DNA of 64,000 nucleotides from a virus, in IMG/VR virus record IMGVR_UViG_3300005573_000001; one strand, given 5' to 3'. Below, in pieces: positions 1 through 10,018 of the stretch. A program made the position numbers and the translations under genes. Positions within the stretch are counted from its first letter, which is position 1, and the number at the start of each line of letters is the position of its first letter. Below the pieces are notes generated by a model, which worked only from the letters and a program-made list of their open reading frames with translations, did no database searches and was not told the origin of the DNA.

Positions 1-121
1 CTTAGGACTAGACCCATCCATCTTAGGACTAGACCCATCCATCTTAGGACTAGACCCATCCATCTTAGGACTAGACCCATCCATCTTAGGACTAGACCCA
101 TCCATCTTAGGACTAGACCCA
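1..121. repeat. 21-bp tandem repeat (CTTAGGACTAGACCCATCCAT) x5 plus a partial sixth copy; may continue beyond the window edge
   Basis: Perfect head-to-tail copies starting at 1, 22, 43, 64 and 85, and a 16-nt partial copy at 106; no spacers. Confidence 0.97.
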
Positions 122-202
122 CTACCCACAGACCGAGGAGGAAGTAGGTCTAAAAAGTAAGAGGAGCACAGGGGTTAACCCGACTCCGGTGGCTATATTT
201 AC

Positions 203-302
203 AAGGGAGGGGGCATAGGGAAAAAGGAGGAGAAAAACCCTATACCCCGTCCCTTAATTGCGAGTAGGTAGGGGCCCTGTGCGGACCCCTACAGGGACCC
301 CC
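203..302 (-). terminator. Two GC-rich stem-loops downstream of the 308-736 gene; probable terminator or stability elements
   Basis: Imperfect inverted repeats aagggagggggcataggg/ccctataccccgtccctt and ggggccctgt/acagggacccc immediately after the stop codon. Confidence 0.4.
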
Positions 303-307
303 AGGCC

Positions 308-736
308 TTACGCCTGGAAGTCTTCGGGTATCTCACCCTCCTCCGCCTCAACAGAGGCAGAGGCTTCCTCGAGCTTGGTATGGATGTGGCGGCAGAGAAC
401 ATCCTGTAGAGCCGGAGAAATTAAGACGTCGCGCGCCCAAACTGTCTTGCCATCCCTTTCGTACTGCCGCCCAGGGGTAGCAAGGTAGATTTCACCCGGG
501 GTCTTACTGTTAAAGACCGTCGTTGAAACCGAAACCACGAACTCCTTATCGGGTTCATCCTTCAGGCCGAAATACAGCCTGAGGAGCGCCCGGCAGGCGA
601 TCGTGGACGGAGCGGTAGGAGCAGCTGGAGCCAGAGGGACCTCGAGACGACGAAACTCGACTTTGGAGAGGTCCGGAGCAGTAGCGTACCGCGGCTGAGT
701 AGCCGCTCCCGTGGTAGACTTGGTTAAACGGAACAT
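308..736 (-). CDS. SpoVG/PC4-like nucleic-acid-binding protein with an acidic C-terminal tail (SSB-like)
   Basis: SD AAGGAGGG before the ATG at 736; segment IYLATPGRQYERDGKTVWARDV resembles the SpoVG motif FVAMPS..DG..RD; tail EAEEGEIPEDFQA. Confidence 0.5.
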   Translation of the reverse strand: MFRLTKSTTGAATQPRYATAPDLSKVEFRRLEVPLAPAAPTAPSTIACRALLRLYFGLKDEPDKEFVVSVSTTVFNSKTPGEIYLATPGRQYERDGKTVWARDVLISPALQDVLCRHIHTKLEEASASVEAEEGEIPEDFQA

Positions 737-795
737 GTATCTGTCCCTCCTTCGTATATATTTATCAACCCCCATAAAGGGGATCAATAGCGGAA

Positions 796-886
796 GTTAT
801 AGACCATGGACGGCGAGGGGCGTCAAGTTCTGTAGAGAAGGACCCTCTGTGCAGACTTGACGCACCGAAGCCGGACATGGTATAAT
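796..886. promoter_or_regulatory. Back-to-back sigmaA-type promoters. Rightward: TTGACG-N18-TATAAT with extended TG (857-886). Leftward: TTGACG...TATAAC (826-796)
   Basis: Both share ACTTGACGC.CC...GCCG..CATGGT in inverted orientation; the rightward one has TGnTATAAT. Confidence 0.65.
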
Positions 887-1080
887 GCATAAATATACAG
901 AAATCCTGTATACTCATGCCATATACTGGAAGACCTAACCCATCAACCCTAACAGGCAAGGTCAATAGAACTAGAAACCCTCTACAAGGCACTAGCGCCC
1001 CGTAGAGACTTTTATATCCCGGTACAGGTAATCACCTTACCGTAGGGATCAAAAACACTCTACAAGGCTTTAGTGCCCTC

Positions 1081-1247
1081 TAGCACCCTACAAGGGTGCC
1101 GGCACAGGACGTTAAATAAATCAGGGTGGCACGGCGCGGAAGCCCCGAGAGCCGCGAAGCGGGCGTGGGGTAGGGGCCCCACGAGGGCTTCCCGCCGGGA
1201 CGGGCCCCTGATTTATAGTCCGTAGTGCCGGCAACCGTAGGGGGCTA
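1081..1247. other. Long rod-shaped imperfect inverted repeat capped by two small hairpins (T-shaped end); candidate ncRNA or ssDNA structure
   Basis: Nested pairings tagcaccctac/gtagggggcta, gtgccggcac/gtgccggcaa, ggac/gtcc, taaatcaggg/ccctgattta and cggcgcggaagccc/gggcttcccgccg; apical hairpins ccgcGAAgcgg and cgtgggg..ccccacg. Confidence 0.6.
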
Positions 1248-1367
1248 AGGCTCCGTAACCCCCCTTTAGGACTTATAATCCTTAGGACTAACTTATACAT
1301 AACCCCCCAGTATTCATACCCCAGTACACAGAGACTATACCTACGTACTTAGGAATAACCTTAAGTA

Positions 1368-1406
1368 AGGTCTATATATATAATTATATATATACTATAT
1401 AGACCT
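1368..1406. other. AT-rich palindrome (unwinding-element-like)
   Basis: aggtctatata...tatatagacct flanking a (TA)n tract, within an otherwise GC-rich region. Confidence 0.55.
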
Positions 1407-1515
1407 AAGGTATATATGTCCAAGATACTGATAGCAACCTAGGGACAGGTAATAGCATCCTAAGAACTACACATCTAAAGGACTAACTACCAAGGTACAA
1501 CCCTACAGGAAGTAG

Positions 1516-1607
1516 TCCCCGAAGGGGGAGGTAGCAGAGTACAGCCCTGGGGGTAGCAGACCATACCCCCCGAAGGGGGGGCTAGAAGTGCATCCCCCGA
1601 AGGGGGG
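1516..1607. repeat. Three tandem Cn-GAA-Gn hairpins (cUUCGg tetraloops on the minus-strand RNA)
   Basis: ccccgaagggg at about 1517, 1566 and 1594, directly after the RNase H stop codon. Confidence 0.8.
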
Positions 1608-2183
1608 CTAGGAGCTAGAGATAGCCCTATTGCACAGGGCGTCGCAGAGCTCGTTAAAGAAATGGCCTGTATGAGCAGGGATATACTGTAGATCGCAGGG
1701 ATATTTACGGAGGATGTCCCATACTGGGCGTATAAGATCCAGGTTCTCCGGGGTCTTACCGTCAGACTTGCGCCAACCGGCAGCGGCCCACTTAGGAGCC
1801 CAGTCGCCCAAGCAGCCTAAGGCATACTTAGAGTCGGACGCGAGAACGATACGGACATCGCAATCGGCAAGAACAGTACGCACAAAGGAAGAATGCAAAG
1901 CAAGGTAAAATGCATAAAGCTCTGCATAATTATTCGTTCTCACCCCCGTATGCTTATGCCAAAGACAGACAGAAAGTATGTCCGAGGTAGGGGCAGAGAC
2001 AACCCCGTTACGAACAATAGAGACCTTATCCTGAGCAATAGGCAGGCTACGATACTTGTTTACAAAAGCCTGAAGAGCAGGCTTAGGTCCAGAGAATATA
2101 ACGGCAGCCGAGGCAGCAAGCCCAGGATTACCCCTAGAGGCACCGTCAGCATAGACTAGTAATAAATGTTCAGAATTCATCAT
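1608..2183 (-). CDS. rnhA: Ribonuclease HI
   Basis: Motifs YADGASRGNPG, TNNYAEL, SDSKY, KTPENLDL and AHTGHFFNELCD (D-E-D-D catalytic set). Confidence 0.92.
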   Translation of the reverse strand: MMNSEHLLLVYADGASRGNPGLAASAAVIFSGPKPALQAFVNKYRSLPIAQDKVSIVRNGVVSAPTSDILSVCLWHKHTGVRTNNYAELYAFYLALHSSFVRTVLADCDVRIVLASDSKYALGCLGDWAPKWAAAGWRKSDGKTPENLDLIRPVWDILRKYPCDLQYIPAHTGHFFNELCDALCNRAISSS

Positions 2184-2221
2184 AATATCGGGGCGGGATT
2201 AGACCCGCCCCTACACCTCCT

Positions 2222-3421
2222 TTAACAATATTTCTTCTTCCAGGCAGACATCTCAATACAGGAGCGCCTGGTTCTCTCTGCATAGGCGGCGGCGCGCTCC
2301 TGATACTGACGCTCCGCCTCCTCGGGGGAGATACGGGGCACAGGCTGAGAACGCTCCACAGAGGGACGCGGATTATGCCGTATATCTGGTACGACAAACT
2401 TGCCGCGCCGCACCTGGACGGCAGCATCCTCGCGGCGCATATTGTCCCAGAAGAACTCAAGGCCACCGAGACGACAGGAGGTGAACTCCCCATTCGTCTC
2501 GTAAAGAGGTAAATACCAAGCCGACCCAGGAAAGATTACTTGACCCCGAGCGTTGCGGAAGGGCTTAAAGACCCTATAAAGGCAGCCAGTACCGGCTGCC
2601 CACTTATCCACATCCGCTACAGAAGAGAAGCTAGTATGCTGGACCGGGCCCCTTACAGCCAGAGCGTCGTCAGCTATACCGCTATCCCGATACCCGACAT
2701 GCCTAACTAAGGTTTGCCCATCAACTATGCCGGAATCCAGGCAATACTTAGCCAGGTGAGAGCTAGCAGCGTCGTCCACCAGACAGCCAAAGACCTGACA
2801 CCAAGCCGTTCCCTGATACGGAGTCTTATTAGCCTCGGCAACAGAGAGGGCACGGTGATAAGTAGCAGACTGACCAGCGCCAGGCTCCCTCGGGACACGA
2901 TACAGCATAGCACAAGAGTCGCAAGAAGCAACCCTCATACGGCCATTCGCATCAGCCAACTTAGCTTTCTTAAGAGCCACAAGCTCAGCATCACGTTTTG
3001 CCACCCGGGCCATAACAAACCGGCACATAGCACCGAATAAGTTAGAAGCGGCCCAAGAGCAAGGAACGCCATACCGGCTCTGCGCCTCATGATGTGGGTC
3101 GATAGCTATAGCAAGCCCACGAAGCCCGCCACGAAGGCGCACGCCATCCACAAAGACGTCGTTAACACTCCTAAAAGTGATACGACGCCCATACAGATCA
3201 GAAACATGATTCTGATCTAGAGCGGCCATGTCGCGGAGCACTGCGGTATTAAGGTTATAAACCTTGTCAGGACCGACCAGGAGCTCCGGCGGCACAGCAT
3301 AAACTACGCCAGGGTGCTGCACTATAACAGTTACCTGAGAGAGCGTAGTCTGTTTGGGTACGAAGTAGAAGGAAGTCGTACCCAGTGTCAAGTCATCATT
3401 AGTCACTACAATCACCTCCAT
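2222..3421 (-). CDS. Hypothetical protein (399 aa)
   Basis: Long ORF overlapping the upstream gene; no motif recognised. Confidence 0.75.
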   Translation of the reverse strand: MEVIVVTNDDLTLGTTSFYFVPKQTTLSQVTVIVQHPGVVYAVPPELLVGPDKVYNLNTAVLRDMAALDQNHVSDLYGRRITFRSVNDVFVDGVRLRGGLRGLAIAIDPHHEAQSRYGVPCSWAASNLFGAMCRFVMARVAKRDAELVALKKAKLADANGRMRVASCDSCAMLYRVPREPGAGQSATYHRALSVAEANKTPYQGTAWCQVFGCLVDDAASSHLAKYCLDSGIVDGQTLVRHVGYRDSGIADDALAVRGPVQHTSFSSVADVDKWAAGTGCLYRVFKPFRNARGQVIFPGSAWYLPLYETNGEFTSCRLGGLEFFWDNMRREDAAVQVRRGKFVVPDIRHNPRPSVERSQPVPRISPEEAERQYQERAAAYAERTRRSCIEMSAWKKKYC

Positions 3422-4271
3422 TTATTTTACGCACGCGGCAGGTAGCCGGGTCAACTAAGACCAAAGTCTTACCCAACCTGCGGGCGTAATTAACACAATG
3501 GGCAGTACCGCCCGTACCGCCGTCGTATACGGCGACGACCGCATCAGCACGATCAACCATATATTGATTACGTGCCTGCAGCTTAGCAATGTGATAACCT
3601 GACTCAGGGACAACCACATAACCAGGAACAGTGTCCACCGTAGTTACCACATCAGCCCTGCTACACTGTTGCTGAAGCAGAGCCTTACTATCTGAAGGCC
3701 AGAAAGCGCCAAAGCCAGCAAAGGGCAAGGCTACCTCCAGAGTAACACCCTGTCGCCACAGTTGTGAGCAGACATCAAAAGCCATCTGATCAAGACCAAG
3801 GGCACCGCCAAAGATAAAGTGGACCTTAGGGTACTTTGCCAAATACGACTTTACGATAGATCTCAGCGCGGCCATGATGCGCCGATTCACCGGACTATTC
3901 CAGTCGTAACCTCCCAACCTAGGAGGACGATGCCCGGTAAAGCACACGACAAAACCATCACCTTGGGCCTCCAAATAGGCCTTAATGGTGTCGCCATGGC
4001 AACGCTTCGGGGCACACCAGCAGCATAAGTACAAGGCAGCAACCGCAGGATCCTTACTGGTCCGCAGCAGGCTCTGTACCGCCGCATAGAATGCCCCCTT
4101 TTCGGACATCTGAGTAGCGAAGTACTGCTCATAGAAATCGCACGCTTCGTCTCTCATAGACTCCTCACGCATAACAAAGGGATTACTAAGGAGAGCCTTC
4201 TGGTCAATGCGTACCACAACGGCGCGCAGTGACAGAGGCTCGCCGCGATGTAAGTTCCAAACTACAATCAT
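3399..4271 (-). CDS. DUF4326-like domain fused to a YspA/SLOG (DUF1273-like) domain
   Basis: N-terminal LSNPF..CCWCAPKRCHGDTI; C-terminal CFTGHRP, GGALGLDQ and RNQYMVD..VAVYDG..GGTAHCV; SD GGAGGT before the ATG at 4271. Confidence 0.8.
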   Translation of the reverse strand: MIVVWNLHRGEPLSLRAVVVRIDQKALLSNPFVMREESMRDEACDFYEQYFATQMSEKGAFYAAVQSLLRTSKDPAVAALYLCCWCAPKRCHGDTIKAYLEAQGDGFVVCFTGHRPPRLGGYDWNSPVNRRIMAALRSIVKSYLAKYPKVHFIFGGALGLDQMAFDVCSQLWRQGVTLEVALPFAGFGAFWPSDSKALLQQQCSRADVVTTVDTVPGYVVVPESGYHIAKLQARNQYMVDRADAVVAVYDGGTGGTAHCVNYARRLGKTLVLVDPATCRVRKINGGDCSD

Positions 4272-4329
4272 ACCTACCTCCATCAAATGTTAATCTTCAG
4301 ACTTACAACCAACCGACATTAAAGACCAG

Positions 4330-4656
4330 CTAACATGACTTCACCCCCTTTCGCATATAGTTTATAGCCTGTTGGAATTCCCCACGTGCCTGGAGATCCG
4401 TAACCAAGCGTTTCAGGAAGTCAAGACCAGCAGGCACCTTGACTTCCGTTTGTAACCTAGAGCCCGTACCAACAGCTGTAGGGTACGTAATATACCTACA
4501 GACAAAGTAGTCCCTATACCGCTGATAGGGCTCCACAGTATGTCCAATGAGGACCCGTGCATATCGAAGGAGAGCGTAAAGTTTACGCTCTCCAAGGTCC
4601 ACTCCACAAGAAGAGGCGACCACCTTGGCCGCCTCCCTCATCAGTATACTCTGCAT
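4330..4656 (-). CDS. Phage antirepressor KilA-C (ANT C-terminal) domain protein
   Basis: Pattern SILMREAAK..GERKLYALLR..PYQRY..YF..QTEV..GLDFL. Confidence 0.75.
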   Translation of the reverse strand: MQSILMREAAKVVASSCGVDLGERKLYALLRYARVLIGHTVEPYQRYRDYFVCRYITYPTAVGTGSRLQTEVKVPAGLDFLKRLVTDLQARGEFQQAINYMRKGVKSC

Positions 4657-4669
4657 AACTCACACCCCC

Positions 4670-5299
4670 TCAGATCGTAAACCCAGAGTGGTATCTCTGG
4701 GCAATATCCTGCCTACGCTGTAGGGCAGCAAGGAATTCATCCACTTCCCCAACGTCAGGCTCCAATGCCTCCGGTGCCCTTACGGGCACAGTTACCTCGC
4801 TACTCGAGGACTTGCCCTTCGAGGACTTGACACCAGCACGGTGCCTCGAGGACTCGCCGTCACGGTGGACGGCCGCTCTCGAGGACTCGCTACCATGTCT
4901 GGCAGCTTGCCTCGAGGACTCGCCGGCAATCGGTAAGGGACCAGACGCCTTAGCCTCTCTCAAGGACTCGTCTATAGTCTCCAAAGGCTTACGCCCTTCA
5001 GCTTGACGCCTCGAGGACTCGGCTATACGGTCACACAGCGCGATAAACATACGCTGAATGATCGGCGTCACGTCCCTACGCACGGTTTCCCATGCTTTAG
5101 TGCGTGGGAACTGTGGCATAATATACACACAGTTCTTCCCCGGCAGCAGGGTCAGTCGGTAGGCAATTCTCTTGTCGTGCCCCGGATTATTCTTATCGGG
5201 CACGACAAATAGGACATGCGACAAGGACACTAGTATGTCCTTACACGTCCCAAGGGTCTTAGGCATTGAAACCTTCAATGCCTTACTGCTTACGTACAT
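4670..5299 (-). CDS. Hypothetical protein with ESSR repeats
   Basis: ATG at 5299 overlaps the upstream stop codon; repeated TCGAGGACT between 4804 and 5019. Confidence 0.7.
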   Translation of the reverse strand: MYVSSKALKVSMPKTLGTCKDILVSLSHVLFVVPDKNNPGHDKRIAYRLTLLPGKNCVYIMPQFPRTKAWETVRRDVTPIIQRMFIALCDRIAESSRRQAEGRKPLETIDESLREAKASGPLPIAGESSRQAARHGSESSRAAVHRDGESSRHRAGVKSSKGKSSSSEVTVPVRAPEALEPDVGEVDEFLAALQRRQDIAQRYHSGFTI

Positions 5300-5700
5300 T
5301 ATTCGCTCCTTTCTTCTGAAGTGCATAGCTTGCACTTCGGTCTCCCTTGCTTATCCAGGTTTTCTATATACCTCGGACAGCTCCGACAGGCACTAATACC
5401 TGTCTCCTCCTGATACTTGACTGCCAGACGGTATATCTGGCAGCCCTTGCCATCTTTCTCGACTACCTCGCAGCAGCCGGAAAATGCTGCCGTTGCCAAC
5501 TCGGCAAACTCTTCCTGCGTGCCGACAAACATCTGGCGCAGGAATGCCAAGTTGGACTTGTAGTCACATGTGGCACAGCGTTTTACAGCCAATGCCACCA
5601 GCGCCGGAGATTCAAAGAGCTCGGGTAGCTCACTCTCCGCCGCATTCCCAAAGGCATCAACATTAATACCCTTGGCCCGCAGTAGATCCCTAATTTTCAT
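5299..5700 (-). CDS. Hypothetical Cys-rich (CxxC) protein
   Basis: SD AAAGGAGG before the ATG at 5700; CATC, CRSC and CKLC motifs. Confidence 0.7.
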   Translation of the reverse strand: MKIRDLLRAKGINVDAFGNAAESELPELFESPALVALAVKRCATCDYKSNLAFLRQMFVGTQEEFAELATAAFSGCCEVVEKDGKGCQIYRLAVKYQEETGISACRSCPRYIENLDKQGRPKCKLCTSEERSE

Positions 5701-5706
5701 TAGGGT

Positions 5707-5742
5707 TCCTCCTTTCTGCCCGCTATCCGGCGGGCGCGGTAT
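5707..5742 (-). promoter_or_regulatory. SD-adjacent H-type pseudoknot motif, copy 1
   Basis: AUACCG C GCCCGC CGGAUA GCGGGC AGAAAGGAGG. Confidence 0.7.
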
Positions 5743-5748
5743 TAACAT

Positions 5749-6036
5749 TTAATTCTTATCTTTGGCACCTCCTTGTTGGCTCTTACGCCACTCTAGGAAT
5801 TCAAGGAATTCCCTGAATTCCTTGTTGCTTAATGTACTAGGGGCCCTCTTCTTAAATAAGTAAGACGCCTCCTTAGCCACGGTCGCACCTCCCAAGATTG
5901 TCCCTTTGACAATCTCAGCGCCTAGGCCACAAGCTTCCTTTGTGACCTTTGCAGCCTTTTTGACCGTAGACGGTCCGCTGCCTCCCAACATGACCAAGAT
6001 AGTCACAATCACGACGACGGTAATTACTATTATCAT
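5749..6036 (-). CDS. Hypothetical protein with an N-terminal transmembrane helix
   Basis: MIIVITVVVIVTILVMLGG after SD AAAGGAGG. Confidence 0.75.
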   Translation of the reverse strand: MIIVITVVVIVTILVMLGGSGPSTVKKAAKVTKEACGLGAEIVKGTILGGATVAKEASYLFKKRAPSTLSNKEFREFLEFLEWRKSQQGGAKDKN

Positions 6037-6042
6037 CGTCTT

Positions 6043-6080
6043 CCTCCTTTCTCCTCGTCTAAACCGGACGAGGTCGGTTA
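6043..6080 (-). promoter_or_regulatory. SD-adjacent H-type pseudoknot motif, copy 2
   Basis: UAACCG A CCUCGUC CGGUUUA GACGAGG AGAAAGGAGG. Confidence 0.7.
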
Positions 6081-6172
6081 TTATAGCCGTTAGCACGGCT
6101 TATGTGGTGGATGTTTAAGGACATCCAGCCTATGTTTAGGGACACCCAGCCCAAGACAATCATTTAGTCGTC

Positions 6173-7849
6173 CTACGAGTTGTTAGATGGGTTAGAGTCC
6201 AGCTTCTCATAGATCATGGCAAACTGCTCTAATATAGATGTCTTCAATCCTTCAGCGTGCTGCCTGCTCTTGAAATTCTTCTCTTCGGCTTTCCTCCTGA
6301 AGTCATCTATATTATCAATAAGCCTCCATAGCCTAGGCCCAGTGACATCCCCTATAGGGTAGTAGTCATTGGTCTGTTTCGCGCTAATGAAGCGCCCTAC
6401 AATTTTCTCCTTTAGGGCAGTGAACTTGTTTTGAAACTCTTCGGCTATCCCCGTATAATCAATATTCCTAGCCTCAGCCCTACGCTTCTGCTTCTTGTAG
6501 TCTTGGAGCCGATAGGACAATGGCGGATGACATAATGAGTCATACGTGCTGTCTCTATCGCAAGAGAACTCCGAAACCCATCTACGATGATGGCATGCAT
6601 CCTGTGTTATGATATATGCCATCATATCGTTGCGCTCCGTAAGTCTCAGATCAACGTGGTCCCAGCTGCCACACATACAGTTGTAATAACTACTGTTTGG
6701 GAGGGCCTCCTTGACAATGTTGAGCCCGGGCTTGAATAATAAGCTCCTCATAACCCACCCTGCAACCACTAGAATCAACGCCATACGATCGCCGATGATT
6801 TTAGCGATGTCGGCGATCGTGTAGTATCCGCAGATAGCCGTGACAATATAAGGCTTTTGGAAGTCAAACGGCGCGGCATGCGCCGCGTATTTTAGGGCGC
6901 GCCTGTTAGATTCCAACAGTTCATGCCCCGCATTGGGGAAGATTGCTTGTATAGGTCCCTTATTCCCCGAATGTAGCACTCCTTCCTGTAGTGCCCTTGT
7001 CAGAAGAGGAGCCACCATGTCGTCTCTCCTGAGCGGGATGGCCCTCTTCTTGTGGAAGTCTAGTACCACGGGGGTAAGGGTCATCTCTGGGCCCACCAAC
7101 ATTATGTGGTACCGGCTCTTATCCACATAATGCGGGCCGTGTACATCAAGGACAAAGTCTCCGACGTACCGATTGCCATATTCGATGGAGTATTTTAGAT
7201 ATACTCCACCAATTTTAACGATCGAACATTTAAACCGGTCTCCGGTATCAATTCTCGACAGACCGTAGTACCCAAGTACCATGGCCTGTAAACCTGGATA
7301 TAACTTATCTAAGTTATTGTCCAGAGTACTATCACACCGCGGCACGGTGTGATTGTACCTGTTTTTGATACTCATATGTGACCCATTGCGGGCCACTTGA
7401 ATGTTTAAGACGCTCGTTCCATACGCATCATCCCTTTGTGGGTTCTGCGCCGGAACGATTGTCTCGGCGTTGGCGTGGATGGCAACTATGATGTGATAGT
7501 CACGCATCCTTCCGTCCAAATTATTATAGGTACATATCAGCTCGTTAGGCCGATAGTACCTCTTACACTGCATAATTTGTTCTCGGTCATCAAAGATGAC
7601 CGTCGTATACCCGGCGGCCGCGAAAGCCGCCCTAATTTCGTCCCGGGTAGCCTTACATAGCTGCCTAGGCTCTTTGTAAGAGGAGTTTATCTCCTCTACC
7701 AATGACCTCACCTCATATTCGGTGAGGTCTTTGAACACTGCTCTGGCATTGCTTGGTGTTACCAGAGCGGTCTTCAATGCCGAAGCATTGATGGGAAGGT
7801 CTCGTACGCACCTATATGCATACTGACCTATAAATTTTTTTACATTCAT
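6173..7849 (-). CDS. Hypothetical protein (558 aa)
   Basis: Long ORF with SD AAAGGA; no family recognised with confidence. Confidence 0.8.
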   Translation of the reverse strand: MNVKKFIGQYAYRCVRDLPINASALKTALVTPSNARAVFKDLTEYEVRSLVEEINSSYKEPRQLCKATRDEIRAAFAAAGYTTVIFDDREQIMQCKRYYRPNELICTYNNLDGRMRDYHIIVAIHANAETIVPAQNPQRDDAYGTSVLNIQVARNGSHMSIKNRYNHTVPRCDSTLDNNLDKLYPGLQAMVLGYYGLSRIDTGDRFKCSIVKIGGVYLKYSIEYGNRYVGDFVLDVHGPHYVDKSRYHIMLVGPEMTLTPVVLDFHKKRAIPLRRDDMVAPLLTRALQEGVLHSGNKGPIQAIFPNAGHELLESNRRALKYAAHAAPFDFQKPYIVTAICGYYTIADIAKIIGDRMALILVVAGWVMRSLLFKPGLNIVKEALPNSSYYNCMCGSWDHVDLRLTERNDMMAYIITQDACHHRRWVSEFSCDRDSTYDSLCHPPLSYRLQDYKKQKRRAEARNIDYTGIAEEFQNKFTALKEKIVGRFISAKQTNDYYPIGDVTGPRLWRLIDNIDDFRRKAEEKNFKSRQHAEGLKTSILEQFAMIYEKLDSNPSNNS

Positions 7850-7855
7850 AACTCA

Positions 7856-7888
7856 TCCTTTCTGCCCGTATAGCCGATAGCACAGCAA
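7856..7888 (-). promoter_or_regulatory. SD-adjacent pseudoknot motif, copy 3 (weaker second stem)
   Basis: UUGCUG U GCUAU CGGCUAUA CGGGC AGAAAGGA. Confidence 0.55.
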
Positions 7889-8127
7889 ATTAATTATCAA
7901 GTGCATATTGTGATCCAGAGGCGTAAGTCCTTGACATCCTTAGTCACTGTTATCCACGTGCAAAACTTGCGAATTCTGTTAATTTCGATAACAGTACGCC
8001 CAATTGTTATGGTACACTTAATGCCTATAGTATTTCCGCTCTTTACTATGCCGCTCGCGGTTAACCGTTGCGCCGGACGATAACGGGCAATCACATATAT
8101 AATGTGTACCCTAGCATACGACAGTGG

Positions 8128-8538
8128 TTAATCCCGTCGTATGTAATGCGGCTCGCGGCAATGATAGCACCGCGCCTTCTTCATGCAAGCATTGATGGCC
8201 GCATTATACATCTCTTCGGCGGCAGGATTGTCCCACTCGCCTTCCGAGAACAATGCGACCGGCTCTAATGTCGCCTCCTCGTTCGTAATAGACACAATCC
8301 TTGAAATGTCTATTACGAAATCCCCACGGTGGCGATTTGCATAGAGCACCAAATCTCCCACCGCAATGGGGATAAGCGCGTGATCGCTATTAGCAAGTGA
8401 GCCGCGCTCCTTCACGTAAATGGCACGCTTAGCGCTACCATCTGGCGAAGCAATTATCATTGCTTCCCCTGTGTTACTGTACCCCCCGCCCCGTTCCCAG
8501 AGGCATGGGGTACCCCTTTTACTTTTAGTAATTATCAT
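8128..8538 (-). CDS. Hypothetical protein
   Basis: 136-aa ORF with SD AAAGGAG. Confidence 0.8.
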   Translation of the reverse strand: MIITKSKRGTPCLWERGGGYSNTGEAMIIASPDGSAKRAIYVKERGSLANSDHALIPIAVGDLVLYANRHRGDFVIDISRIVSITNEEATLEPVALFSEGEWDNPAAEEMYNAAINACMKKARCYHCREPHYIRRD

Positions 8539-8545
8539 ATTAATC

Positions 8546-8580
8546 TCCTTTCTCCGGCATTAAGCCGTGCCGGTCGGCAG
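8546..8580 (-). promoter_or_regulatory. SD-adjacent H-type pseudoknot motif, copy 4
   Basis: CUGCCG A CCGGCA CGGCUUAA UGCCGG AGAAAGGAG. Confidence 0.7.
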
Positions 8581-8604
8581 ATGTGTGGATTGAGACTTTG
8601 AGAC

Positions 8605-9009
8605 TTAATAGACTTCATATTCGGTTGTTTGGATATTTTCTACCCACAACCTCTGCCATGCTATGAGGTCATGGGGATAGGCAAACCTCACCCCCTTCTC
8701 TTGCAAGTCGGACAATACGCCGTATGAAACGGGATACCATCCTTGCGGCTGGGTAGAGTAGTACCCAGCCGCCTCCATGACGCGTCGCATGTCCGCGAAC
8801 ACGCCATGTTTCAGCAGCTTGTCAAACTCGTCGTCGCGTACGACGACGACGATGGTTTGTTTCACGTCACCCTCAGGTGATGTTAGCTCAAACCCGCACG
8901 GAACCTCGTCCGCGAAGGCGAGCACACGATACGGAGACGTTATGTCTCCGTCGATTAGTTCCTGTGCCGCGATAAGGCACCTCCCTAATCTTGTTTTCAT
9001 AGACAACAT
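8605..9009 (-). CDS. Hypothetical protein
   Basis: 134-aa ORF with SD AAAGGA. Confidence 0.75.
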   Translation of the reverse strand: MLSMKTRLGRCLIAAQELIDGDITSPYRVLAFADEVPCGFELTSPEGDVKQTIVVVVRDDEFDKLLKHGVFADMRRVMEAAGYYSTQPQGWYPVSYGVLSDLQEKGVRFAYPHDLIAWQRLWVENIQTTEYEVY

Positions 9010-9016
9010 AATTTAT

Positions 9017-9053
9017 TCCTTTCTGCCCGCCTTTTACCGGACGGGCGCGGTAT
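9017..9053 (-). promoter_or_regulatory. SD-adjacent H-type pseudoknot motif, copy 5
   Basis: AUACCG C GCCCGUC CGGUAAAA GGCGGGC AGAAAGGA. Confidence 0.7.
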
Positions 9054-9075
9054 ATTTTTGTGGGCGGTTTGGCTA

Positions 9076-9363
9076 CTACCGCTTATTGCGCCAAGGCGCA
9101 TAGGCCTCGGCGGACATCCTGTTAGCCATTACCATGACTAACAGTCTGAAGTCAGCCTTTCGGCTGGCTCCTTTTAAAGAGATGGGCTTTTGTAAAAGCC
9201 CATCCCACGCGTAGAGATGGCCGTCACCAGTACGACCAATCGCTACCTTGTAGTCCCGTAGGACTACTTCCACACTGTGTCCAGGAGACCATGTCTTAAT
9301 GATCTCCCGGAGCGCCAACCTTACCGCCTCAGCGGCAGGTTTCACAGCATCTCTCATAGTCAT
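9076..9363 (-). CDS. Hypothetical protein
   Basis: 95 aa; translationally coupled (TAATG) with SD GAGGAG. Confidence 0.75.
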   Translation of the reverse strand: MTMRDAVKPAAEAVRLALREIIKTWSPGHSVEVVLRDYKVAIGRTGDGHLYAWDGLLQKPISLKGASRKADFRLLVMVMANRMSAEAYAPWRNKR

Positions 9364-9647
9364 TACTCCTCACCCCCTTTCTCTAAAATCGACTGGGGCC
9401 TGTACTCCCCAGTCGATACGTCATAGTGCCACAAAACGAGTTCACACCCGCACCTGTGGCACGCCCTGATCACCGCAGCAACGGCTGCGGTGAGCCCTGT
9501 GACATATAGATCTACGTGTGCGATACCACGTAGAACCTCGACGGCATGGCTATACATGCCATCAAAATTAAACACGTCCTCGATTTGCTCGAAGACGTAT
9601 CTGTCGACCGGCATCTCGTGCCGGCCCTTCACTAATCCGATTGTCAT
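9363..9647 (-). CDS. Small alpha/beta hypothetical protein (possibly CARF/Rossmann-like)
   Basis: SD AAGGAGGGG; pattern GRH...VDLYVTGL-helix-LWHYD..GEY. Confidence 0.7.
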   Translation of the reverse strand: MTIGLVKGRHEMPVDRYVFEQIEDVFNFDGMYSHAVEVLRGIAHVDLYVTGLTAAVAAVIRACHRCGCELVLWHYDVSTGEYRPQSILEKGGEE

Positions 9648-9732
9648 TTTACCCCTCCTTATTTATTTTTTGCCCTTTCGGGCATGGCAGGCGGCTTTTA
9701 CTGGGGAGCCGCCAAGAACCCGTCAGCTCCTG

Positions 9733-9876
9733 TCAACCCATTAGAGTTGACAGGAGCCAGAGAAACACTAACCCTATTCCCACAACAAATAGGAATAGGG
9801 CCCCTATCGCCCCTAGGGTTCTTTTAAACCCTAGTATGGCGACCACTATTATTAAGAGTATTATCGCCAATAACAT
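9733..9876 (-). CDS. 47-aa membrane microprotein (absent from the ORF track)
   Basis: SD GGAGGTG; MLLAIILLIIVVAILGFKRTLGAIGALFLFVVGIGLVFLWLLSTLMG, two hydrophobic helices. Confidence 0.7.
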   Translation of the reverse strand: MLLAIILLIIVVAILGFKRTLGAIGALFLFVVGIGLVFLWLLSTLMG

Positions 9877-10018
9877 CTTCTCACCTCCTCTCGCAACATG
9901 GGGGGGTGGGCTCCGATCTTTCCCAAAGCCTCCCTATATTCATACATGGTACCCAGAGAGAATATATACCCTAAGTGTCCCTATAGGCTTCCATATATTG
10001 GTATAGAGTATTATGGTC

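Follow-up and report, generated by a model that had tools for sequence, protein, structure and literature searches.

A covarying H-type pseudoknot flush with the ribosome site of unrelated genes in a 64-kb viral DNA and in other phages

Do the leftward genes of a large viral DNA share a folded RNA directly ahead of their ribosome sites, and, if so, what would such an element do? The question is raised by the IMG/VR virus record IMGVR_UViG_3300005573_000001, a stretch of 64,000 nucleotides that is referred to here as the window. Within it, at positions 5,707 to 9,053, an earlier note based on the sequence alone had described five copies of a covarying RNA pseudoknot abutting the ribosome sites of the minus-strand genes that start at 5700, 6036, 7849, 8538 and 9009. 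We ran a covariance model (R1), comprising the long stem and the conserved letters, on the whole window with filters off. Exactly four significant matches were obtained i.e., 9017-9054, 8546-8581, 5710-5743 and 6045-6081 (E-values from 1e-11 to 7e-5). Only the first of these, copy A, had been included in the R1 seed, so that three of the four were recovered from outside it. All four copies share one layout, consisting of a 3-5 bp stem formed between the 5' flank and the loop (S1), a 1-nt loop (loop 1), a 6-7 bp GC-rich stem (S2), a short A/U loop (loop 3) and then, with zero spacer, the ribosome-site motif AGAAAGGA.

Copy A occupies 9017..9051 on the minus strand and scores 51.8 bits with R1. 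Its S1 5' arm (9048-9051), loop 1 (9047) and S2 5' arm (9040-9046) are followed by the S1 3' arm (9036-9039), loop 3 (9032-9035), the S2 3' arm (9025-9031) and AGAAAGGA (9017-9024), with the start codon at 9007-9009; the open reading frame (ORF) upstream ends at 9076 in two tandem stop codons. Copy B (8546..8578, minus strand; 31.4 bits, E = 3.7e-6, outside the seed) is also intact and has S1 arms at 8575-8578 and 8564-8567, loop 1 at 8574, S2 arms at 8568-8573 and 8554-8559, loop 3 at 8560-8563, AGAAAGGA at 8546-8553 and the start codon at 8536-8538. Its outer S1 pair is G-C, as opposed to A-U in copies A and D. Intact copy D (6045..6079, minus strand; 26.7 bits, E = 7e-5, outside the seed) has an S1 of up to 5 bp, with arms at 6075-6079 and 6062-6066, loop 1 at 6074, S2 arms at 6067-6073 and 6053-6059, loop 3 at 6060-6061, AGAAAGGA at 6045-6052 and the start codon at 6034-6036. 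Although S2 of this copy differs from that of copy A at most positions, it is fully paired. Copy E (5710..5740, minus strand; 29.4 bits, E = 1.3e-5, outside the seed; fold z -3.0) is intact with a 3-bp S1 (arms at 5737-5739 and 5727-5729), loop 1 at 5736, S2 arms at 5730-5735 and 5718-5723, loop 3 at 5724-5726, AGAAAGGA at 5710-5717 and the start codon at 5698-5700, and begins 8 nt after the upstream stop codon (5749-5751).

Across the four copies a standard pair was present in every cell of both stems, and double-sided changes were found at five of the seven long-stem pairs and at one short-stem pair. When the registers were slid, only 30-44% of positions paired. The covariation that the earlier note had reported for both stems thus holds with full pairing in the window, and it is stronger still across the several hundred viral loci described below. 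Its short stem before the gene at 5700 survives in part: the CCG/CGG pairs form, but the stem is only 3 bp long and has an A-A mismatch at the outer position. The count of five copies also needs correction, as only four minus-strand copies are intact. The copy ahead of the gene at 7849 (copy C, 7856..7886, minus strand) lacks the long stem, of which at most 3 bp are possible, gives an R1 E-value of 3.2, and folds no better than its shuffles (z +0.34). The GCUG/CGGC short stem assigned to it is in fact a separate 4-bp hairpin (7873-7886), followed by a UAUA linker, a 5-nt relic of the S2 3' arm (7864-7868), AGAAAGGA (7856-7863) and the start codon (7847-7849). By repeat-family comparison, 7869-7886 is 89% identical to 6082-6099, and the junction between arm and ribosome site is common to copies A, C and E. 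Copy C looks like a deletion remnant that has retained the S2 3' arm and the ribosome site. Conversely, the list of copies had overlooked a sixth AGAAAGGA, at 5307-5314. This site belongs to a plain-hairpin variant (copy F, 5307..5338, minus strand; R1 E = 1.7), which consists of an 8-bp stem (5331-5338/5318-5325), a loop (5326-5330), a 3-nt spacer and the motif, with the start codon at 5297-5299. It shows no flank-loop pairing and sits within the 3' end of the upstream ORF.

The repeated hairpin shared with copy C comprises a 4-bp stem and a 6-nt loop, followed by UAUA, and occurs on the minus strand at 6082-6099, directly upstream of copy D, and at 7869-7886, within the remnant. At 6082-6090 it merges into a TATAAT hexamer.

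The earlier note had allowed that the element might already be catalogued. A search of Rfam 15 with the whole window returned zero matches at gathering scores, and at permissive E-values over 5200-9150 the matches were at chance level only. The sole permissive match that overlapped a copy was RAGATH-10, at 18.4 bits compared with a cut-off of 41.2 (E = 5.2). The element is therefore uncatalogued at both thresholds. Nor did we find a description of it in the full-text literature searched, a search that left most subscription journals outside.

The element was also found well beyond the window. Family counts were obtained by pattern scans of viral contigs, and the figures below hold among the matches listed. 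A scan in which the flank, the start of the loop and the tail were forced yielded at least 120 loci, and in 15 of its matches the 6-7 bp stem was free of mismatches, varied in sequence and lay at a suitable distance from a start codon. Two freer scans, with five outer long-stem pairs and the tail fixed and the flank and loop left free, yielded at least 117 and at least 107 loci. The element thus recurs at several hundred viral loci. Among 148 unique elements from the freer scans, the flank-loop helix reached at least 4 bp in 84, compared with 42 ± 4.4 (maximum 57) when the flanks were permuted. The preferred geometry in these elements was a loop 1 of 1 nt, with 2 nt as the second choice, a zero inter-stem spacer and a loop 3 of about 4 nt. 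The short stem itself came in over ten sequence types, including ACCG/CGGU, GCCG/CGGC, CCCG/CGGG, GCCC/GGGC, UCCC/GGGA, CGCC/GGCG, GGC/GCC and UUGC/GCAA, together with several 5-bp forms, one of them a compensated one-pair expansion.

Pairs were counted on equal-length, gap-free subsets, since MAFFT misplaces stems of unequal length and model-guided alignment scatters the loops. In a set of 24 elements that had not been chosen on the short stem (S2 of 7 bp, loop of 8 nt), 81% of the cells of this stem were paired and each of its four pairs had changed on both sides, while slid registers gave 23-49% pairing for the whole structure. A second equal-length set gave 65%, a figure diluted by an unrelated U-loop hairpin family. 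With covariation holding both in the window and in viral sets not selected for the short stem, the proposal of a dispersed cis-acting RNA element is upheld. To compare viral with cellular DNA, the identical pattern was run on one genome per prokaryote species. The knot form accounted for 30 of the 81 viral elements (37%) but only five of the 117 cellular ones (4%; Fisher p = 3.5e-9, among the matches listed), the cellular matches being mostly ordinary hairpins.

Two related groups of loci were noted in the scans. More than 30 prophage-like contigs (L230-L311, e.g., L230:5682-5717), many of them from isolate genomes, carry a distinct conserved hairpin with a U-rich 8-nt loop, flush with AGAAAGGA and without flank-loop pairing. 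In a sub-family made up of L121, L133, L138, L142, L168 and some 15 others, the long stem is unchanged and abuts AGAAAGGA, but the loop differs; the register of the 5-bp flank-loop helix that L168 can form is displaced by 2 nt into the loop, the other members show no obvious pairing, and the gene served has an apparent TTG start.

The anatomy of the family was determined on 60 unique knots flush with AGAAAGG. The generic knot scanner was restricted to this subset, its run on all loci having given mostly chance matches in GC-rich DNA. Loop 1 was 1 nt long in 47 of the 60 knots, with A commoner than C or G, and loop 3 measured 3-4 nt in 51 of the 60, with a composition of 60% A and 30% U. The H-type geometry proposed from the window i.e., a 1-nt loop 1, a zero inter-stem spacer, an S2 of 6-7 bp and an A-rich loop 3 of 3-4 nt, is therefore also that of the family. 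In 52 of the 60 knots AGAAAGGA lay 6-9 nt ahead of the start codon. The knot began 5-11 nt past the upstream stop codon in 40 of 57 cases, with a peak at 7-8 nt. This tight spacing is not kept in the window, where the stop-to-knot distances are 24, 27, approximately 95 and 8 nt. The frame of the start codon relative to the upstream stop showed no preference (18/20/14), and the upstream stop codons followed ordinary usage (TAA 24, TGA 22, TAG 6).

In a further scan the knot core was fixed and the tail left open. Four kinds of tail were encountered i.e., flush AGAA-type tails, spacers of 2-3 nt, other ribosome sites and AT-rich leaders. Nine of the approximately 17 tails that bore a ribosome site began with AGAA flush against the knot. 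Nearly all intergenic matches lay 1-12 nt past a stop codon; high-GC matches inside ORFs were due to chance. In the low-GC contigs L473, L476, L460, L457, L530, L562 and others, the knot core was situated 1-6 nt past stop codons. Their AT-rich, motif-free leaders are in the style expected of phages of Bacteroidota-like hosts.

The ribosome-site motif is itself unevenly distributed. The window contains ten occurrences of AGAAAGGA versus 2.65 ± 1.63 expected, and none of 100 shuffles reached ten. Six of the ten lie on the minus strand between 5307 and 9024, each 6-9 nt ahead of a start codon. Ribosome sites beginning with AGAAAGG serve seven consecutive leftward genes with starts from 9363 to 5299, the first of which, starting at 9363, has a knot-free site of this 5'-shifted type at 9376..9382 (minus strand). 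Among the other genes examined, one of 42 (start 40235) had a site beginning with the full AGAAAGG. Taken by themselves, the 33 plus-strand genes include only one with such a site, a GGAGG-centred one being typical of them; outside the seven-gene block as a whole, the typical site is GGAGG-centred or reaches GGAGGTGAT. We take AGAAAGGA(GG) to be the complement of the last nucleotides at the 3' end of 16S rRNA of the Firmicute type (...CCUCCUUUCU-3'). The ribosome sites of the window, GGAGGTGAT included, are presumably overlapping pieces of the complement of this 3' end.

The genes served by the element have little in common. Family-wide, they are small (median of about 76 aa) and include RecT-like, anti-restriction and Arc-like repressor genes, with most encoding products of unknown function. 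They fall into 19 different PHROG families with one member each, or into none. The four window genes behind intact knots likewise matched no Pfam family. Five essentially complete genomes (94-100% by CheckV, 41-78 kb) carry 1-4 copies each, compared with which four copies in 3.4 kb is a dense arrangement. An unrelated contig carries a module that is identical to copy A at 34 of 38 letters, with two of the four differences compensating each other in the short stem; the flanks of the two could not be aligned. When the window proteins were compared with the pattern-fetched loci, only one weak match (the 94-aa product) was found. Conversely, an R1-type knot was found at none of 32 related jumbo-phage loci identified by a profile of the 558-aa protein encoded in the window, although R1 is GC-rich and could miss AT-rich versions; at these loci the orthologous gene has an AGAAAGG site that overlaps the upstream stop codon. 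The knot was also not found in four cultured relatives i.e., three Bacillus jumbo phages and Moorella phage MTATph1. From these comparisons, we infer that the module moves between phages as a unit and serves unrelated, mostly early or accessory genes.

Any account of function has to accommodate the fold, its placement between stop codon and ribosome site, its independence of the gene served and its enrichment in phages, all four of which are demonstrated by the data. The comparative data narrow the roles proposed in the earlier note, as translational enhancer or operator, exonuclease block or processing site, to those that a between-gene module of generic kind could play, and rule out a sensor tied to one gene. 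The reading that we prefer, and which we consider about evenly balanced between right and wrong, is that of a portable between-gene mRNA leader that would present the ribosome site on the end of a helix and shield the message. In this model, the starting point is that the RNA separating an upstream stop codon from the following ribosome site folds as an H-type knot whose 3' end runs without a gap into AGAAAGGA. The 3' end of such a knot exits at the outer end of S2 and the mRNA-rRNA helix starts at the next nucleotide, so that the terminal helix of the knot and the mRNA-rRNA helix could stack end to end, with the 3'-terminal nucleotide of 16S rRNA abutting the 5' end of S2. The ribosome site would thereby be kept single-stranded on a rigid helix end, insulated from upstream RNA, and a site pre-organized in this manner may be captured strongly by the small ribosomal subunit. 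The knot would also remove the single-stranded spacer between cistrons and, together with the bound subunit, could shield the downstream cistron from 5'-to-3' decay, comparable to the action of STAB-SD against RNase J1. In Firmicutes, 30S subunits that dock on a 16S-complementary sequence of the 5' leader are known to stop RNase J1 (PMC4113751, PMC5737220). A more ambitious version, which we offer as a doubtful extension, is a ribosome-docking device in which S2, the mRNA-rRNA helix and the short stem would form a continuous stack of about 20 bp. Such a device would represent an undescribed class of translation enhancer and mRNA shield, usable as a plug-in by many phages, and possibly the first phage counterpart of exonuclease-resistant RNAs.

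Several observations weigh against the preferred leader model. In the nested folds, CC of the flank is able to pair with GG of the ribosome site, which would hide the site rather than expose it. Counts of G-U versus A-C did not single out the folding strand, and the covariation is as compatible with two stems that alternate as with two that coexist in one fold. Knot cores followed by 2-3 nt spacers or by other ribosome sites show that the knot and AGAAAGGA are separable, and in low-GC phages the leaders that come after the core are AT-rich, measure about 20 nt and lack any ribosome-site motif. The tight stop-to-knot spacing of the family may mean that the knot serves the upstream cistron or termination instead. 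Finally, in several knot-bearing phages AGAAAGGA is common as a ribosome site without any knot, so that end-to-end stacking is not the whole reason for the knot. In the complete viral genomes G001, G002 and G004 (behind L193, L157 and L187), AGAAAGGA and its complement occur several-fold above a reversed control word (17 versus 4 in a 72-kb genome), and AGAAAGGA is thus a preferred general ribosome site there.

These same observations bear on the alternatives. The knot might be a stand-alone nuclease barrier or end-defining element of the xrRNA (exonuclease-resistant RNA) or REP kind, which stops RNase J coming from the 5' side and/or PNPase and RNase R coming from the 3' side at cistron boundaries. 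Each cistron would then survive as a separate stable message, and the adjacency of the ribosome site would reflect genome economy. It is a pseudoknot that makes the exonuclease-resistant RNAs of viruses work (PMC11702639), the phage knot fills the whole inter-cistron spacer, and its core lies 1-12 nt past stop codons whatever follows, even where low-GC phages show no ribosome-site motif. Known xrRNAs, however, ring their own 5' end by pairing of the loop with downstream sequence, whereas here the loop pairs with the 5' flank, so that a 5' exonuclease would meet the 4-bp stem first and simply unzip it. Since, in addition, no bacterial or phage xrRNA was found in the literature searched and the preference for a flush AGAA start in Firmicute-type phages is left unaccounted for, we regard a pure nuclease barrier as unlikely, if well worth keeping in mind. 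A lower probability still is given to a class tag or operator, in which the knot and AGAAAGGA would mark early messages for joint switching on or off by a phage factor acting in trans, be it a protein repressor, a RegB-like endonuclease or a small RNA that imitates the 3' end of 16S rRNA. The confinement of AGAAAGG-type sites in the window to seven consecutive leftward genes fits this proposal, and T4 offers precedents for class-wide control at early ribosome sites, in the gene 32 operator and in RegB (PMC1702504). Nevertheless, beyond AGAAAGGA there is no family-wide conserved loop or stem sequence for a protein to read, hundreds of unrelated phages are unlikely to have one regulator in common, and in other phages AGAAAGGA is a general ribosome site. 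As to the small-RNA candidate, the 64-kb window contains no hairpin that displays the complement of AGAAAGGA outside the elements, a search that left about 110 kb of the genome outside; counts of this complement in five knot-bearing genomes showed only that AGAAAGGA is a common ribosome site there.

A role linked to termination, in which the knot meets the terminating ribosome and promotes re-initiation, blocks post-termination sliding or stimulates read-through or frameshifting, draws on the 7-8 nt peak of stop-to-knot distances. This is the spacing of recoding pseudoknots and would place the knot at the mRNA channel entrance of a ribosome on the stop codon; folding would also bring the following ribosome site nearer to the stop codon. 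We consider it very unlikely, given the unbiased start frames, the ordinary stop usage and the loose spacing in the window. Moreover, the low-GC knots, 1-6 nt past the stop, would already be partly unwound by the terminating ribosome. A read-through or frameshift stimulator in particular was rejected despite its fitting spacing, with frames and stops against it and two in-frame stops preceding copy A. Module-only identity between unrelated phages would also be consistent with an element that acts as DNA, be it a hairpin promoter for a virion RNA polymerase, as in phage N4, or a gene-shuffling recombination linker of the PeSL type (PMC2839356). Flank-loop pairing with the loop lengths of a pseudoknot is, as far as known, meaningless in DNA, however, and the elements are always sense-oriented, flush with the ribosome site and present in complete phage genomes of 41-78 kb. 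Recombination, for its part, is a possible side effect of any shared module. Promoters and terminators were ruled out: the distance from stop codon to knot leaves no room for a promoter, the stems lack a terminator U-tract, and no copy appears in the list of minus-strand terminators. A function at the DNA level is thus highly improbable. We attach just as little weight to the view that the knot is a mere stable hairpin beside a strong ribosome site, its flank-loop complementarity inherited and without structural role. ACCG and CGG are common to many members, so that part of the pairing signal could reflect descent, and plain hairpins flush with AGAAAGGA do exist elsewhere, copy F also being counted as such a case. 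Against this stand the more than ten complementary sequence pairs in one register, compensated insertion included, the 81% pairing of the unselected set compared with 23-49% in slid registers, the viral share of 37% versus 4% in cellular DNA, and loop lengths that cluster where an H-type knot is sterically possible.

With regard to genome setting, the element region forms part of a leftward-transcribed block (approximately 1-9900), with a strand switch near 10 kb. The window encodes terminase, portal, sheath and giant tail-module proteins, and its terminase most closely resembles that of Moorella phage MTATph1 and those of 0305phi8-36-like Bacillus jumbo phages. Knot-type elements in cellular genomes were found in Oscillospiraceae and other Bacillota assemblies. 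No close DNA relatives of the window were found among sequenced phages, and neither the 558-aa nor the 375-aa product retrieved any relative in protein-pattern scans of viral contigs. The 558-aa product (6173-7849, minus strand), encoded behind remnant C, matches no Pfam family and no relative with a solved structure. In the protein collection it is itself encoded on a contig of 174,200 nt. Its homologues number more than 400, with 39-46% identity and long invariant stretches, on contigs of 90-480 kb; two JGI records give the protein the label RNA polymerase subunit, and it looks like a conserved core protein of jumbo phages. The block has its longest non-coding stretch, approximately 240 nt, ahead of the 558-aa gene at 7890-8127 (minus strand); this gap contains only a weak 65-aa ORF with a GTG start and could carry a promoter or a small RNA. 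Other leftward genes of the block encode a DUF4326 plus YpsA/SLOG fusion protein (3399-4286, minus strand) and an RNase H domain protein (1608-2183, minus strand). Upstream of the gene starting at 9647 (minus strand), a hairpin at 9655-9700 with a 5-bp stem and a GAAA loop is followed by an A-run and precedes an ordinary AAGGAGG site. On the plus strand at 9035-9052, the flank and first arm of copy A read as a 5-bp hairpin followed by a T-run, and are listed as terminator-like for plus-strand transcription.

A compact, covarying fold that is found at several hundred viral loci and is missing from Rfam and from the literature searched shows that the catalogue of cis-acting RNA elements is incomplete. 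Should the knot enhance translation or message stability, it would explain how short accessory phage genes are expressed strongly and independently of context, and would provide a ready-made insulating leader for expression engineering in Firmicutes. If it blocks RNases, phages would join the eukaryotic viruses as carriers of exonuclease-resistant RNAs. The near-identity of copies carried by unrelated genomes is also suggestive of a part in gene shuffling between phages.

How does the element compare with known systems? In preQ1-I riboswitches, pairing of the 3' tail with the loop conceals the ribosome site, the letters of the ligand pocket are conserved and the genes served are those of queuosine metabolism. 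The preQ1-I class (RF00522) resembles the phage element in being a very small H-type knot at a ribosome-binding site. The features of a riboswitch are absent here, however, in that it is the 5' flank that pairs, no letters are invariant outside AGAAAGGA, the genes are unrelated and Rfam gives no match. As for exonuclease-resistant RNAs, we know of none in phages. Class 3 xrRNAs (PMC11702639) are likewise compact viral knots of roughly comparable size that are defined by fold and not by sequence. In these the loop pairs with downstream sequence to form a ring round the 5' end, in contrast to pairing with the 5' flank in the phage element, and xrRNAs have been described for eukaryotic RNA viruses and Xrn1.

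Two repeat systems of phages invite comparison. The SAS and ESAS repeats of cluster K mycobacteriophages (PMC3203893) are, like the present element, conserved motifs at the translation start of a subset of genes, and in about half of the cases an inverted repeat lies directly upstream of the SAS, for which a translational role is suspected (PMC3203893). They differ in motif, host phylum and element size: the SAS is a 13-bp motif and the ESAS are 17-bp repeats whose sequence is conserved within a genome, whereas the phage knot combines an 8-nt motif with freely covarying 6-7 bp stems and a knot-forming stem. The PeSL cassettes of T4-type phages (PMC2839356) are likewise small, repeated between non-essential early genes, shared among phages and likely to act as recombination points. 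Each consists of a sigma-70-like promoter and a terminator stem-loop; in contrast, the present element has no room for a promoter and no U-tract, and its pseudoknot is fused to the ribosome site. 

The operator of T4 gene 32, to which the earlier note had likened the element, resembles it in the knot alone. In the T2 gene 32 knot, a single-nucleotide loop 1 crosses a 7-bp second stem, as in the phage element, and both knots are small (about 28 nt) and coaxially stacked. The operator of T4, T2 and RB69 (PMC535899; PDB 2TPK, named in PMC6007934) is likewise an H-type knot in a phage leader, 5' of the ribosome site. There, gp32 polymerizes on an unstructured stretch of UUAAA/UAAA repeats, more than 40 nt long, that lies between the knot and the start codon (PMC535899). 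Here, the long unstructured tract is missing and the knot abuts AGAAAGGA directly, with the start codon 6-9 nt on. The gene 32 operator also controls one autoregulated gene, in contrast to the many unrelated genes served by the phage element, and Pfam gave no single-strand-binding protein downstream of the copies in the window. The likeness to the gene 32 operator could consequently not be maintained beyond the fold.

The STAB-SD-type stabilizers of Firmicutes (cry3A, hbs; PMC4113751, PMC5737220) share with the phage element a purine tract complementary to the 16S 3' end as well as the host phylum; the polypurine stabilizer of SP82 is a related Firmicute 5' mRNA stabilizer. STAB-SD tracts lie far from the start codon, do not direct initiation and have no pseudoknot. 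In the phage element the tract is 6-9 nt from the start codon, a normal distance, and therefore probably directs initiation.

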